From the NCBI GenBank assembly GCA_964106915.2, contig OZ066923.1: a stretch of 64,000 nt of DNA. One strand, written 5' to 3'. The position numbers were made by a program, and so were the translations under genes. Each line of letters begins with the position of its first letter. The first letter of the stretch is position 1. Under the pieces are notes generated by a model. The model saw nothing but the letters and a program-made list of their open reading frames with translations. It did no database searches and was not told the DNA's origin. Shown here piece after piece: positions 1 to 38,828 of the stretch. The stretch comes from Podarcis gaigeae. Taxonomy: Eukaryota.

Positions 1-127
1 ACAATTCAACCGTTACGTTGCATGTTTTTCTATGACCATTCTGCAATGTTTCTGCTAGAGGTTTTGAATGCTTCACAGTTCTCTTTTGGACAACAGAAGC
101 CTCCTTTGGTAGAGTTAGAGAAAGTTG

Positions 128-241
128 CAGTTACAGATAGGTAGCCGTGTGTATCTGAAGAAGTGTGCATGCACACGAAAGCTCATACCAAGAACTAACT
201 TAGTTGGTCTTTAAGGTGCTACTGGAAGGAATTTTTTTTGT
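128..241 (+). mobile_element. Short Penelope-like (PLE) pseudo-LTR-derived insertion
   Basis: Flanked by a perfect 13-bp direct repeat TTAGAGAAAGTTG (115-127 and 242-254). Internal sequence CTGAAGAAGTG...CACGAAAGCTCATAC...TTGGTCTTTAAGGTGCTAC resembles reptile Penelope pLTR ends (recalled). Confidence 0.8.
151..188 (+). ncRNA. Minimal type I hammerhead ribozyme (PLE-type)
   Basis: Stem I GTAT(151-154)/ATAC(185-188); core CTGAAGA 155-161 plus an extra A; stem II GTGTG-CATG-CACAC 163-176; GAAA 177-180; palindromic AGCT mini stem III; predicted NUH cleavage after CUC at 184. Confidence 0.75.
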
Positions 242-291
242 TTAGAGAAAGTTGGTGTGGTTTGGATAAACCTGCTAACTTTAGTGTAATA

Positions 292-518
292 CAGTGGTAC
301 TTTGGTTGTTGAACTTAATCTATTCCAGGAGTCCTTTCGACTCCCAGAACTGTTAAAAAACCAAGGCGTGGCTTCTGATGGGCTGCAGGAGCTTCCTGCA
401 CTCAATTGGAAGCTGCGCCGGACGTTCATCTTCCGAAAAAGGTTCACAAACCAGGTTTGCGGCATTCGGGAGCCGATTTGTTCAACAACAAAGGTGTTTG
501 ACTACCAAGGTACCACTG
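292..518. mobile_element. Tc1/mariner Tigger-like MITE
   Basis: TIRs CAGTGGTAC...GTACCACTG with TA on both sides (290-291, 519-520). Confidence 0.85.
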
Positions 519-705
519 TACAGTTTCCATATGATACTCCTGGACAGGGGCCCCTGACAGGCATCCTAAAAAGTGAATATGTTATGGATGCTTTCCCCAC
601 ATTGATGCTGCATTCTTTTGTGGAAATCAGGGCTCTAAAAGAAGGACCATGATTTACTTAATGATATGCTGCAGAGAATTCTCTTAACCAAGAAGAGAAA
701 AAGGC

Positions 706-871
706 TCAGGTTCCATAGCTTGTTAGGTAGTATGCAGAAGTTCCCAGGTTCAGTTCCTGGCATCCCTAGGTAGGGCAAGGAGAGACCTCTGTCTGAAACC
801 CTGAAGAGCTGCTACCAGTCAGAGTAGACCGTACTGGGCTAGATAAGCCAAAGGTCTGAGTCAGTACAGTG
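706..871 (+). mobile_element. Squam2-type tRNA-derived SINE, 5' part, interrupted by hAT; remainder at ~4450-4472
   Basis: ATGCAGAAGTTCCCAGGTTCAGTTCCTGGCATC...GCTAGATAAGCCAAAGGTCTGAGTCAGTA continues as TAAGGCAGCTTTC after the hAT right TSD. Confidence 0.7.
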
Positions 872-3800
872 CAGGGGTCTGCAACCTTTAAGACAAAAAG
901 AGCCACTTGGACCCGTTTCCGAAGAAAAACAACAACTGGGAGCCGCAAAAACATTGCAACATTTAAAACAAATATAACACTGTATATATTGTTTCTTGCC
1001 TTAATGCTATATATACAGGATCGTGCAGTCAGCTGTCAATCTCAAGAAAAAAGGACAAATTAATAGCTAATTAAAATATTTAATTTACAACCAGGTAACC
1101 AGGTTAATGGGACTTTTGCTCCTGAACCTCAGTGCTCAGTGTCTGCACATCAGGGCTGTAAGACGTCACCTTCATTTTCACACAGGCTTGCAAGCTGTCA
1201 TCTGTGAGGCGTGATCGATGTTTGTTTTTAATATAGTTCATGTTGGAGAAGACCTGCTCACATACATATGTGGAACCGAAGATCGACAGGACTCCAAATG
1301 CATACTTTTTCATGTTTATATAAGTGTTGGGGATGGCATTCCATGTTTCAAATACAAGTTTGTCCTGTTTGGGAAGGTTTTCAATATCACTCCATTTATG
1401 ATTCTGAGCCAGAATGGCCTTCTGATGGGCAACATCCTCAAGAGTAGCGGTCAAGCATTTGAACTTGGACACCCATATATCTTTGTCGGCTATATCGGCC
1501 AGTTCCAGCTCAAGATCAGGTTGACTTACACCTGGAAATGCAGTCATATTCAATAGGGATGGATCGATCGCCAGGGGAGTGACAGGGAAGGATAATGTGT
1601 TTTTTTCCTCTCTGAAACCACAGAATCGTTTCCCAAACGAACTTTGCATTGCGGTGATTGCAGACTTGAAATATTCCAAATTTATCGTATCATGACTTTG
1701 TTTGAACTCTCTCAAAGAGGGAAAGTGAGACAGTGTACCTCTCTGGAAATCTTTGACAAACACTGTCAACTTGCGCTCAAATGCCAAAACCTCCTCCAGC
1801 ATGTGCAGGGCTGTGCCTCCTTTCCCCTGAAGGGTTGTATTTAGCGTGTTTAGATGGGCTGTCATGTCTACCATAAAATGTAATTTTTCCAGCCACTCTG
1901 GCTGTTCCAGCTCAGCAAAGGTAAGCTCTTTGCTGGCCAGGAAGGTTTTTACTTCTTCCAAACATGTGACAAAGCTTTTTAGCACCTCGCCTCTGGACAA
2001 CCACCGGACCTTGTTGTGGAGCAGGAGGTCCGAATATGTGCTTTCCACCTCATCCAGTAGCAAACGAAACTGGCGGTGGTTTAAACCCTTTGCCATTATC
2101 TTATTAACAATCTGAATGACCACATCCATCACTTTTGTGCATTCGGGGGGAAATGTTTGAGCACACAATGCCTCTTGGTGCAGGATGCAATGAAATGACA
2201 GCAGCGTTCTACCCAGTGCCTTCTGCAGTAGAGCCACAAAGCCCTTCTGTGCTCCTCATGCTTGGTGCCCCATCAGTAGCCACTGAGACCAGGTGGTTGG
2301 TGTTTATTTTTTTAGCACTTAAAAAGTCCAGGACAGCCTTACAGATATCCTCACCCCTTGTTTGGTCTTTTAGTGGTATCAGCTCAATCAGTTCTTCCTG
2401 TGGCCCAAAAGAGTTCACATATCGGCAGAACAGTGCTATTTGTTCAATATCACCTTTATCTTTGGGCTCATCACAGGTGATGGAGTACACCACAGCTGAA
2501 TTAATGTCTTGAATTTGCTGTTTGCTAATGTTTTCTGCCATTTTTAGGGTTCTGTCTTTAACAGTCTTCGCAGACAGAGGCATGTCTTTGATTTTCTGCA
2601 CAATTTCATTCTTGTTTTTGAAGTCCATGTATAGATGTTCCGAAACCTTAATGAATGCTTCTTTTATATACTCTCCATCTGTGAACGGCTTCCCGTGCTT
2701 GACTATTTCCTGAGCGGCTACAAAACTAGCATACGTTGTGGAATTTGCAGACTTCACCCAATTCTTGAAATTATTTTTGCTCCTATCAACCTTCCTCATA
2801 AGTTCTGCAACGGCTTTTCGTCTCTCATCTCCATCTGGATATTTTTCAGCAAAGGCTGCGTGTTTATTCTGGAAATGTCTTGCAATATTTGACTTTTTGT
2901 TGTTTGCAAATTTCTCACCACATATTAAGCATACTGGTAAACCAGTCTTGTCAGTAGAGAATGCAAATGATTCTGTCCATGTATCATTAAACATTCTGTT
3001 TTCTTCAGAATTTTTTCTTTTCTTGCCTTTATCCATGGCTGGCCTACCGGGGGTCCAAAACAGGGACGTAATTAGAAATCAGAGGGCTCCATAGCAAAAT
3101 TTGCTATGCCCGATGTCAGGGAACTGACATCAGAGCGAGAGGCGAAGGGGAGGCTCCCAGATTATGCTGGCGAAAGACCCAGCACCAGGGGGAGAAGCAG
3201 CTCGGTAGAGGGGGAAGGAAATCAGCGCAACACCAGGGATAAAGGGGGGCAGATGGGGGAAGCGGAGAGAGAGCTCCGGGATTCTTCTCTGGACATCAGT
3301 GAGTAGAGCACAGGTCCTCCACTACCCACGCCCTCACAAATTCCACGCGACCGCGACTTGCTATGCCCAATAATCAATGCCCAAAATGCCATAGAAAATT
3401 AATCAGGGCCCCAGTGTACCATAAATCATAATCAGTGCCTGATGTAAATAATAATTAATAATGAGGGCCCAATGTCATCCTCGTCATTATAAAAATACCT
3501 TTTTTGACACTTTTTATTATTTATTTGTTTGACCCCTCAGAATTACTCCTCCTCATAGAAATAAACATTACATTAACAAGTTACCTTTTTTTGAGTGTGT
3601 GTTCTTCACTCCCCTTCAAAACAGTGACCAGTGTATATGCCCCCTTTCAATGCAGCCTGCTTACAAAGGCGGGACGACAAAGACCAGCAATAAGCTGTTG
3701 CATAACGTTCCCCAAGGAAAGCGTTAGCTATTCACCAAACTTTCCCCTGCTTAAGTTTAAAAAGGGGCTTCAAGCAACTAAAAAGGGGCTTCAGGCAACT

Positions 3801-4441
3801 AACTCCCACGTGGAATTGCCTATAGTAAGATGGCGGCCGCCTCAGAAGACCACATGGGCAGATAAGATGGCTGCTGGGGCGATCTCAGCAACAGCACAGC
3901 TGCTTCCGATGCTTTTAAAAGCAGCCGGCAAAGCAAGCGTTGGAGCGCCGAAGCCATCTCACCCCCACAAGGAGAATGCTGCGCATGTGACCAAATAGCG
4001 AGGACTTTGCTAGAGACAAGCCCCCGACGCTACCACAAGCCTCCCTCTCTTCCCGCCGCCCAGCCTCCCAAGAAAAAAAACCCCACTTCAAACGGTCACA
4101 AAGCACAAATTCCACGCGACCACGACTTGATCCGCCCACAACTTGATCCACCAGGCGCGCCGAGTCCTCCCCAGGAAAGGTAAAATGTGGCGATGAGCTT
4201 GCGTAGCGCGCTGGGCTCCCAGCAGCGAATCGACTTGGATAGGCAGCAAGCAATCCAAACGGAGAGGTTTGTGGCGCGATCAAGGCGCCCCCAGTAGATA
4301 AGGGAGTGATCCAATCATAAGCGGCTTTTTGCGTGTTTCCGCCCAGAAAATGCGCCTCCTCCCCTCGCCTCCGCCCCGGAGCCGCAGCAAAGGCGTTAAA
4401 GAGCCGCATGCGGCTCTGGAGCCGCAGGTTGCCGACCCCCG
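872..4441 (-). mobile_element. Full-length autonomous-type hAT DNA transposon (Charlie/Buster/SPIN-like clade), 3570 bp
   Basis: TIRs CAGGGGTCTGCAACCT (872-887) and revcomp CGGGGGTCGGCAACCT (4426-4441), 14/16 identical. Perfect 8-bp TSD GTACAGTG (864-871, 4442-4449). Subterminal GAGCCRC motifs. Encloses the transposase. Confidence 0.95.
1104..3036 (-). pseudogene. hAT transposase (GTF2IRD2/EPM2AIP1/SPIN-like), ~643 aa, single frameshift at ~2253-2256
   Basis: ORFs 2209-3036 and 1104-2237 join at ATDGAPSMR/AQKGFVALLQK. BED-like finger CLIC...RHFQNKH; DDE motifs CDEPKD, ATDGA and STYVCEQVFS; HCILH (CxxH); RWLSRG; C-terminal dimerisation motif KHRSRLTDDSL. Kozak GCCAGCCATGG. Confidence 0.92.
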
Positions 4442-5994
4442 GTACAGTGTAAGGCAGCTTTCTTACACTATGTTTCTGTGTAGTCCCCCTGCTTTTCACA
4501 CTGCTAGTTCCCCATCCCAGATTACTTCACTGCTTTCCTTAATAAATTCTGAAGTGAGCCAGCCAGCTCCTTGAGTCTGTAGTGCACATGTCCTCATATT
4601 AAATGATAATTGAGATTTTCCATAGAAGTTAAACTGTGAATGACAACATTCGTTAAAATTTCTTGCCGCTGAGCAACTTAGAAACGTCAGCACATGAAGT
4701 GATTAAGACATATTAATAATTAGGAAGATGAAGTACATTCACCTTCAGAAATGAAATGGGTGCTAAATTTAGTGGTATCAGCCATTTCTAGAAACTTGGC
4801 AATTATTACACTGTGGGTTGAAGTAACTGAGGTAGCCGAATAAGGGGAGTTTAATTGTGTCCTTTTCTGCTGTTCTCAGTGGGAGGAGCAATGATGTGTG
4901 TTGATTTCAGAGCAGCACATCCACTTTGAGGACTGAAGCATATAGCTGAAATGCTTCCTTGTCTGAATGGATTTCAGGGTATAATGTTAGCTCCTCTGGA
5001 ATCACACAGGAAATGTCTTGGATGTTTCCCTAAGCTTCTTTAAGGAGGCTAATTTTCTTTAGATGTTTAAAGGTTTAAAAAACCACAGTTTGTGTCATCT
5101 TCCTTTGAATCCAGGCAGAAATGGATTACCAGTGAGTCTTGTCTAGCAAATGGACTTGCAGTACCTGCAAATTAGTTGACATCCCTTCCTAGCACAGCAC
5201 AGTACAAACTTTAATTTTAGACTCCACCTGCCTACAGAGAAAGTAACAAAGCAATATAGCTGCAGATCAAATGCTTATCAGGAACCAGCAAACTTCATGT
5301 GTTGGATATCTTTCACTTGCTCTTTCATTTTTCTTTTCTTTTTTACATGTCATGTGCCCTTTGATTACCAACACAATACATCTGCATTTTTGTATTCTAC
5401 TATAAGATATGCCCTTAAACATTTTGCTTTAGGAGAAGTGGACACTTAAGCAATTTTAAGAGGTCATTGGAAAGTCAGAGTGCCCAAAGATCTCCCTTCA
5501 AGAAGTGGTGTATTATTTTTTGATTATAAAAATTATGGTGTTCAGCATCCCATATATTTCAGATTCTGGTGTAGTCTTGGTCCATAAAATGGCAGTGTAG
5601 TCAATTTCAATACAATAGTATGAGCAGGAGACAAAATGAATAATTCACCCTGGCCTCTTGCTTTCTGAGATAGCGGGAATGTTGAGAACAGTGTGGCAGC
5701 AATGTATTTAACCCCAGGCTCATGGGCACATGACTTGTCGTTGCTGACAAAATGCAACTTGACAATCAGCTACTGACATTTGTGCTGAGTTTGTCATCCA
5801 CTGCATTTCACCATTAAGTATATCCAACAACCCCCCCCAAAAAAACCTGAATTACATTTTCTGTTTTACAGGGTTGATGATGCAAAAGAGATCTGAACAA
5901 AGAATTCAGCCCAGCGACAGGCAGAATAGATCATTTATATTGCAGGTTAAACTCTCAGTTAATTAAGGGCTAAGTAGTAAGTGCATGTGAAACC

Positions 5995-11145: not shown

Positions 11146-11382
11146 CAGTGGTACATCGGTTTTTGAATGTCTCCATGGACTAACATTTCGGTTTTCAAAC
11201 GCCGTAAACCCAGAAGTAAATGCTTCAGTTTTCAAACACGCCTCAGAAGTTGAACATGCCACGCTGCTTCTATTGACTGCAAGATCCTGAGCTGTCGGCT
11301 ATTGAGTTTTCGGTTTTCGAACATTTCAGAGCTCGGAATGGTCTTCCAAAACGGATTACTTTCGAAAACCAAGGTACCACTG
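11146..11382. mobile_element. Tigger-like MITE
   Basis: TIR CAGTGGTACATCGGTTTTTGAA / TTCGAAAACCAAGGTACCACTG, TA TSD on both sides. Confidence 0.85.
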
Positions 11383-27019: not shown

Positions 27020-27152
27020 ATGGAGCGTTTCTTGGGCTTTGTCAAGCAGATAAGAAGATCGAGGAGAAGAAAAGGCAAAAAGTACCGGCCAGAGGAGGAT
27101 TATCATGAGGGTTATGAGGATGTCTATTATTACGCCTCGGAACACTTTCCAA
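27020..27152 (+). CDS. GRIP1: Alternative first coding exon, probably glutamate receptor-interacting protein 1
   Basis: Strong Kozak GAGATGG; 44 codons MERFLGFVKQIRRSRRRKGKKYRPEEDYHEGYEDVYYYASEHFP plus 1 nt, then donor GTAAGC at 27153. The phase-1 end fits joining to the GRIP1 exon starting (A)AT-ESPYTKS. Identity is recalled from non-mammalian GRIP1 isoforms, not searched. Confidence 0.7.
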
Positions 27153-37698: not shown

Positions 37699-38312
37699 TA
37701 TCTAGTTTACATTTGATGCTAGGCTACATTGGTACTATGTACACACAAGTCAGTCAGGGAATTATTTCTCAAAAACAGCAGACAAAGATCACAGGTGTAA
37801 GTAAAGGAGCACAGTGGCATCTAAGCCATATTGCGCCACACACCAGATGACAGTTCAAGCAGCTGTCTCTTCACTTCCATTCAGGTCATGCGTAAAATTG
37901 TCTTCCTGTAGCAGCCAGCCTCTTCAGTTCCCAAGGTCTTAAAAAGGCGGAGGACAACCAGCCTATTGTCTTTATGAATGTGAAGAAAGCAAATTAGTAT
38001 CTTCAGTCAGAGAACACAGGGATGAAAACGTGCCTCTGGACCATGCTACTAGAGACTGGAGCGTTCGTGATTGAATGCTCCTCCATACAAAGCTTTCTCC
38101 TGTACACAGGAAACTGCATGTCAGGGAGAAGAGTTGATGGAAAATATTTACTGGAAGGCCACTGACTCACATGAGTCTATGCCTGTGTTCTGAACTGGTA
38201 CAGCCCTGAACTATGCCTTCCCCAGCTGCTTAGGAGATCTAGGCTTCTGGTGTGCCCTTATTACAAACTTGTTGAAATACAAGTGGGCATCCATTTGCAT
38301 GTACCCTTTATG

Positions 38313-38828
38313 CATAGCTGTCAACCGTCCCTTATTTGGCGGGAAACTCCCTTATCCCAGCGCTGTGTCCCGCTGCTGTCCCTTATTGATGATGTCCCTT
38401 AAATTTTCTGGGTTTCATGCTCGCCCGGCTCGGGAGGGAAGCAGCAGCTCGGGGTCCTCTGCTGGAAGAAGGAGTGCACGCTGGTGCCGTCATCCTGGTG
38501 CGAGGAGTTCCATCGGCCCTTCCCCGCCCGAGGGGGGGGAGGGAGACTCTCGCCCATGCCACCCGCGAGCCCAGAGGCGGCAGCGATGGTGGCAGCTGAG
38601 GAGGCGGCCTGAGGGAAGAGGAAAAGGAGGGGATGGGAGGGACGCAGACGGGTGGCGCTTCAATGGACGCCGCAGCGCCGCAACCGCCTCATTCTGGATT
38701 GACAGATGCTGTCAATCCTACCAAGGTATGTAACTCTTTACAATAGAAAATCCCTTATTTTGGCTGCTGATCCCTTATTTTTGAGGCTGCTGGTCCCTTA
38801 TTTTCAAATCTGTAACTTGACAGCTATG
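38313..38828. mobile_element. Non-autonomous hAT element (MITE), 516 bp
   Basis: TIRs CATAGCTGTCAA / TTGACAGCTATG; perfect 8-bp TSD CCTTTATG (38305-38312, 38829-38836); repeated subterminal TCCCTTA(T) motifs at both ends; CpG-rich interior. Confidence 0.92.

Follow-up and report, generated by a model that had tools for sequence, protein, structure and literature searches.

A 114-bp hammerhead-containing insert in a lizard GRIP1 intron is a stub of a young Penelope-like retrotransposon

A 64,000-nt stretch of Podarcis gaigeae DNA (assembly GCA_964106915.2, contig OZ066923.1; hereafter, the window) carries near its start a 114-bp insert that contains a hammerhead ribozyme motif and lies within GRIP1. 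The locus raises the question of what kind of insertion this is, how it was made, and whether it acts on the gene that holds it. A first-pass annotation of the sequence had taken the insert to be essentially a hammerhead of Penelope type, placing a latent self-cleaving RNA in the GRIP1 pre-mRNA. Our analysis shows that it is a dead, recent stub of a young Penelope-like retrotransposon (PLE), putatively of Neptune type, and one of more than 11,000 such stubs in the genome.

Anatomy of the insert and its hammerhead motif

The insert spans 128..241 and is bracketed by a perfect 13-bp direct repeat (115-127 and 242-254). This repeat is a true target-site duplication (TSD), since in 4/4 runs, which represent organisms C, D, E, and F, the contigs contain one repeat copy followed by the right flank. 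Runs of organism A (X1 and X2) and organism B (X4), on the other hand, continue into the insert. Because the site is empty in four of the six labelled organisms examined (C to F) and occupied in A and B, the insertion is recent and lineage-restricted. The features of the locus are as follows.

115..127: left TSD, 13 bp; single copy at the empty site in 4/4 runs
128..150, minus strand: inverted arm, the last 23 nt of the element tail (+134 to +112, first ORF codons), by blastn against full-length copy L082
149..150: head-to-head junction; 2 nt assignable to either arm (blastn against L082)
151..241, plus strand: sense arm, pLTR sequence from the putative capped RNA start to the tail-less RT start site (L082 comparison and arm ends)
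151..188, plus strand: minimal type I hammerhead motif, predicted cut after 184 (consensus match; features as in PMC4209133)
151-154 / 185-188, plus strand: stem I, 4 bp
155-161, plus strand: core CUGAAGA, followed by an extra A at 162
163-167 / 172-176, plus strand: stem II, 5 bp, with a CAUG loop; 163-176 as a whole is a perfect 14-nt palindrome
177-180, plus strand: GAAA of the core
180-183, plus strand: AGCU, self-complementary
182-184, plus strand: CUC cleavage triplet, predicted cleavage 184/185
242..254: right TSD, 13-bp perfect repeat
27020..27151, plus strand: GRIP1 exon, alternative first coding exon, matching at 100% across 44 aa in tblastn with GRIP1 N-termini

Positions in the element are numbered from an initiator-like A in the pLTR (+1), which places the beginning of stem I at +4, the predicted cut after +37, the ATG at +101, and the tail end at +134. 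The insert reads antisense from +134 to +112 and then sense from +4 (or +2) to about +95; the sense arm begins at 151, or possibly at 149, and nucleotides 242-243 are compatible with either the element or the TSD. As the antisense tail precedes the sense pLTR, the insert consists of two outward-facing element ends fused head to head.

The hammerhead core is complete (C3-U4-G5-A6-N7-G8-A9, G12-A13-A14, A15.1-U16.1, and H17, at 155-161, 177-180, and 183-184), and the traits of minimal PLE hammerheads are present, namely, the extra A162 after A9, G163-C176 as G10.1-C11.1, a palindromic 15.2-16.2 (G181-C182), and a 4-bp helix I. The metazoan PLE pLTR hammerheads described in PMC4209133 likewise have a full core, an extra base between 9 and 10.1, G10.1-C11.1, a 4-bp helix I, a palindromic 15.2-16.2, and thousands of solo copies, and that source mentions reptiles among the hosts. 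The lizard motif differs from that description in that its 5-bp helix II sits in a perfect 14-nt palindrome and that it apparently starts at the first base of the RNA; its activity here is a prediction. An Rfam scan of window positions 1-1000 gave no hammerhead family match at E<=10. A loose hammerhead pattern occurred in the window at chance level (8 versus 7.1 expected), and the folding z-score of the insert was an uninformative 0.29. Nonetheless, the motif is not a chance occurrence, because a genome-wide count found the exact 34-nt core at 11,151 sites and its reversed control at 0. On re-check against the sequence, all motif coordinates, the perfect 13-bp TSD, and the Penelope-type minimal hammerhead of the first-pass annotation held. 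That the insert is essentially a hammerhead is true in part: a minimal hammerhead is present, but it takes up only 38 of the 114 nt, and the insert opens with a 23-nt inverted fragment of the element, which that annotation leaves undescribed.

Several other features of the window were recorded. A MITE-like element begins 35 bp to the right of the insert, with a 25-nt inverted repeat pair (84% complementary) at 290-520 inside a high-depth repeat. A fairly young DNA transposon lies 0.9 kb from the insert; at 1104-3078 on the minus strand, it has two adjacent open frames of 289 and 383 aa for a hAT/Spin-like transposase (zf-C2H2_12, DUF4371, and Dimer_Tnp_hAT). CpG-rich patches at 3750-4500 and 38250-38800 contain no recognised exon and resemble repeat interiors.

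The parent element

Besides the 11,151 exact cores, the genome contains 14,070 copies of the downstream 21-mer and 3,851 copies of an older variant, and near-identical arms of the family number more than 14,000. When the longer copies were traced upstream, a GIY-YIG ORF and long open frames came to light. Locus L082 comprises a pLTR, an intact 910-aa ORF, and a second pLTR, and its ORF encodes RVT_1 together with a GIY-YIG domain at the C-terminus, both over the Pfam cut-offs; a sequence comparison of the parent ORF with solved structures gave no match. Two cysteines lie between GIY and YIG in the translated copies L083 and L085-L088, forming the CCHH motif that PMC8557442 gives as a criterion for EN+ PLEs. 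All eight long ORFs fetched have a CX4CxxC linker between RT and EN; according to PMC8557442, a CX2-5CxxC linker is of Neptune/Nematis type. The parent is thus an EN+ PLE, probably of Neptune type, the Neptune label being drawn from the linker motif and the vertebrate host. The long copies L081 (2652-3569, minus strand), L083, and L084 are located adjacent to a 7tm_3 receptor exon, within a LINE-like element, and alongside an LTR-retrotransposon-like pol frame.

EN+ PLEs are described as carrying an inverted 5'-truncated pLTR, a 30-40 nt tail at one end, and a TSD (PMC3846280, PMC8557442), and the lizard family has an inverted 5'-truncated copy, a 30-40 nt tail at one end, and a TSD. It also shares with them head-to-head arms, a parent with RT and C-terminal GIY-YIG, and a TATA sequence in the pLTR, which was located about 30 nt upstream of the putative RNA start in the 22 long arms inspected. 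Judged by its sequence, the insert is a miniature of this published inverted pattern. It differs from the copies described in those sources in its extreme size, 114 bp, in having as its inverted arm a part of the tail, and in the lack of overlap between its arms.

Formation of the stub

Arm ends were called by script for the first 100 arms of contig C1, which had been selected through an anchor lying outside the hammerhead. Outer ends fell at two fixed points about 38 nt apart, with 48 at +84..+100, 51 at +122..+139, and 1 elsewhere. The insertions from this sample comprised 48 two-armed and 28 one-armed rows (n = 76), and 46 of the 48 two-armed rows combined one tailed and one tail-less end. 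When the 7 two-armed rows with ends off either start site were dropped, exactly one tail was present in 40/41 insertions (P = 2e-11 versus free choice). Of the 59 rows whose repeat was at least 8 bp long, 35 had a TSD of 12-13 bp, and the median length of two-armed insertions was 211 bp. The family is divided roughly 50:50 by a variant at +50, and in all 26 scorable insertions both arms agreed at this position, an outcome expected alike from one RNA or from two RNAs of one source locus.

The inner ends were less regular. Among 40 insertions, the arm extending further 5', by more than 5 nt, was the tail-less one in 21 and the tailed one in 8, and the two ended within 5 nt of each other in 11; the arms were disjoint in 3/40, as they are in the window copy. 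Because the tail-less arm so often reaches further, and the window arms do not overlap, neither arm is a simple copy of the other. The inner junctions of these 40 insertions were blunt or microhomologous in 15 and contained filler in 25. At L030, L248, L259, and similar loci, the junctions often hold short repeats of nearby element sequence, which we take to be as expected for polymerase-theta-type end-joining.

Inner ends accumulated near the pLTR start, where 34/100 fell at +1..+8 (4.25 per nt versus 0.67 and 0.22 on the flanking sides); in older subfamilies, 8/30 fell in this interval. Both arm types contributed to the pile-up (16/52 tailed and 18/48 tail-less). Genome-wide, 3,460 arms broke exactly at the first base of stem I (+4), the base immediately preceding it being foreign to the element, whereas the corresponding counts were 165 for the cleavage site and 122 for a control site; since the +4 pattern also picks up older subfamilies (3,851 more arms), the ratio of 3,460 to 165 is inflated by up to about 1.3-fold. 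The base before +4 in the first 100 of the 3,460 arms was G in 71, A in 17, and C in 12, and the partner arm failed to explain 16/18 G cases among 30 fetched arms. This extra G led us to replace the initiator-like A (+1) with +4 as the RNA start. A splice-acceptor origin of the inner ends, suggested by an upstream pyrimidine tract ending in AG, was rejected: the peak is at +4 and not after the AG, 20/28 arms ending at +1..+5 are preceded by an antisense arm, and there is no common upstream exon. An accumulation of cDNA termini where the hammerhead would cut, taken as a fossil of in vivo cleavage, was likewise set aside. The excess there is marginal at most (165 versus 122, P = 0.013; 2/100 locally), although 18 of 30 inspected breaks are true junctions.

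Taken together, these data make it likely that the stub was made by the element protein, which would have extended the two ends of a staggered cut by copying a single capped, uncleaved RNA. The hammerhead of the stub is predicted to misfold at its site in GRIP1. The pLTR promoter, with its TATA about 30 nt upstream, would start a capped RNA at the first base of stem I (+4), as judged from DNA, so that the hammerhead would form the first 38 nt of the mRNA. The endonuclease would cut both strands 12-13 nt apart. One 3' end would then prime at the tail-less start, its cDNA running off the capped 5' end (91 nt in the window copy), and the other would prime at the tail end (23 nt in the window copy); each cDNA would either run off the capped end or terminate early. 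Finally, host end-joining would fuse the two cDNA ends head to head. Under such a mechanism, most insertions would be tiny and contain the hammerhead, and the ribozyme would owe its presence to its position between the RNA start and the RT start sites, not to selection at the new site.

Parts of this scheme have counterparts in known systems. In vitro, the protein of Poseidon PAc, an Anolis PLE, cuts and extends both strands, dispenses with hammerhead cleavage, initiates RT at a pair of internal positions delimiting the tail, and is predicted to be dimeric (PMC11167929). The two start sites bounding the tail are shared with the lizard family, as, in our scheme, would be the cutting and extension of both strands and the copying of RNA without hammerhead cleavage. 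The lizard parent differs from Poseidon PAc in its CX4CxxC linker (Neptune/Nematis type) and in a tail that starts just before the ATG, whereas the PAc tail has its start some 110 nt inside the ORF; the main text of PMC11167929 mentions neither strict one-tail pairing nor an extra G. Twin priming, which accounts for L1 inversions (PMC11702581), also has a second target end priming a second cDNA; the inversion that results shows a discrete TSD, and its inner junction is end-joined (PMC11702581, PMC4859970). The second start of L1 varies and lies upstream of the first cDNA, while the lizard family has two fixed starts, separated by 38 nt, and cDNAs that usually overlap. An untemplated 5' G has been taken as cap copying in L1 and SVA (PMC4859970).

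An alternative that we consider improbable keeps the same element and stub but derives the inverted arm from fold-back or self-priming of a single cDNA (or from an antisense template), later trimmed at the apex, as proposed for rotifer Penelope elements in PMC3846280. It predicts variants common to both arms, which agrees with the 26/26 shared at +50, and it fits the 11 insertions whose inner ends nearly coincide and the 8/40 in which the tail-less arm is nested in the tailed arm. However, in 21/40 insertions the tail-less arm has sequence missing from the tailed arm, the disjoint arms of three insertions and of the window copy are hard to obtain from one folded cDNA, and both arm types accumulate at the RNA start; extension of both strands by the anole protein also speaks against fold-back.

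The exact junction of the window copy occurs at seven places in the genome (L229-L235), each with its own TSD, and 6/6 scorable copies carry the same +50 variant (background, 41/89). Such sharing would suit the view that the 114-bp unit is itself a nonautonomous mini-element, resembling a retrozyme or a SINE and re-copied whole, and a preprint (10.64898/2026.07.22.740005) derives animal retrozymes from PLE pLTRs. We nevertheless find this reading very unlikely. Such copies number only seven in a family of more than 11,000 arms, the positions of their tail ends differ within the usual start-site range and adjoin different TSDs, and the unit lacks the TATA region. Moreover, the preprint describes a non-LTR retrozyme as head-to-tail tandem units with a hammerhead in each, whereas the window copy and the seven shared-junction loci each consist of a single head-to-head unit, with no head-to-tail array. 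Extension of both cut ends on one capped RNA therefore remains our preferred account of the window copy.

The insert in GRIP1 and in its family

To place the insert relative to GRIP1, first scans for PDZ-like motifs and short ATG exons were made, without finding a GRIP1 exon, whereas the GRIP1 N-termini of 120 proteins pointed to two first coding exons: 62 mapped to the alternative exon at 27020-27151 and 21 to that of another isoform, which lies 70.5 kb upstream of the window. The plus strand also carries PDZ exons 204-246 kb downstream, and a GRIP1 exon 224 kb downstream matches lacertid proteins at 100% identity. Given these two first coding exons, the insert lies in sense orientation in intron 1 of the upstream isoform, in keeping with the same-strand placement of the first-pass annotation. 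A second stub of the family is located about 12.3-12.4 kb upstream (contig C21); it has a 39-nt inverted tail and a sense arm from +5, and its hammerhead is sense to GRIP1. As the family has a density of one per ~135 kb, two copies in 154 kb are unremarkable.

The latent ribozyme of the first-pass annotation would cut the GRIP1 pre-mRNA as a cis or trans dimer and thereby affect the gene. The sense placement, the intact core, and the second intact sense copy in the same intron are in its favor, and the anole motif is protein-assisted (PMC11167929), so an element protein could help. Folding predictions, which leave aside tertiary contacts and proteins, point the other way. The probability of stem I is 0.001 in the window context compared with 0.6-0.7 in the element's own transcript, and that of stem II is 0.07-0.10 compared with 0.95 in the element's own 5' context, as the head-to-head junction is predicted to pair with the stem II palindrome in a competing hairpin. 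Stem I likewise has a predicted probability of 0.0007 in the upstream GRIP1 copy and of <0.01 in 45/52 sampled copies within their own flanks. A catalytic dimer would be held by a 4-bp interface (-2.5 kcal/mol), against -25.2 kcal/mol for the predicted noncatalytic RNA-RNA duplex of the 163-176 palindrome, and minimal hammerheads are reported to be inactive as monomers and weak as dimers (PMC4209133). With the site also empty in most of the organisms examined and G12 unprotected across copies (see below), this reading is extremely unlikely. Misfolding of the window hammerhead within this intron is thus predicted, so the insert likely does little to GRIP1 RNA, and we hardly expect it to have a functional effect on the gene. 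The stem II palindrome may act as a dimerization signal.

Decay of the core across copies was also examined. G12 is the most mutated hammerhead position (6/64 young arms), so the excess conservation of core nucleotides that the first-pass annotation looked to across copies was not found. G12 lies within a CpG and decays like any other, with 6/64 changed in young arms and 4/19 in older arms, compared with 5/49 for a tail CpG; genome-wide, G12-to-A changes numbered 764 and changes of the adjacent C to T numbered 584. Catalytic G12 is therefore unprotected in the copies. Across subfamilies the core is kept, in line with its having a role in the parent element rather than in the copies. The excess of sense-strand G-to-A over C-to-T is family-wide (P = 1e-6 for the G12 CpG; 5 versus 1 at the tail CpG) and may reflect either deamination of first-strand cDNA with a strand bias or mild selection against copies whose core is intact.

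Hammerheads, inverted pLTRs, and tails of PLEs are already published, and the window copy is an ordinary member of its family. It is also a discriminating case, because its arms come from nonoverlapping parts of the RNA, which is hard to reconcile with fold-back. Our search of the literature, mostly outside subscription journals, found no published account of PLE inversions by twin priming or cap run-off. We give about an even chance to the broader proposal that PLEs insert by a fixed asymmetric twin priming, in which a protein dimer would extend the two sides of a 12-13 nt staggered cut by copying one capped RNA from two starts 38 nt apart. Inverted arms, one-sided tails, and hammerhead-sized stubs would then be products of one mechanism, and the hammerhead would be a cap-proximal mRNA domain, uncut in copied RNAs, serving as a decapping switch and not as a processing step.

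PMC8557442 states as an open question how the tandem and inverted structures and the tails of PLEs are formed. The family counts reported here, that is, the one-sided tail in 40/41 insertions, the same variant in 26/26, the extra G, and the few ends at the cleavage site, bear on that question. They also bring a caution against taking intronic minimal hammerheads in reptile genes for host regulators: at a density of one per ~135 kb, large genes will contain such hammerheads by chance.
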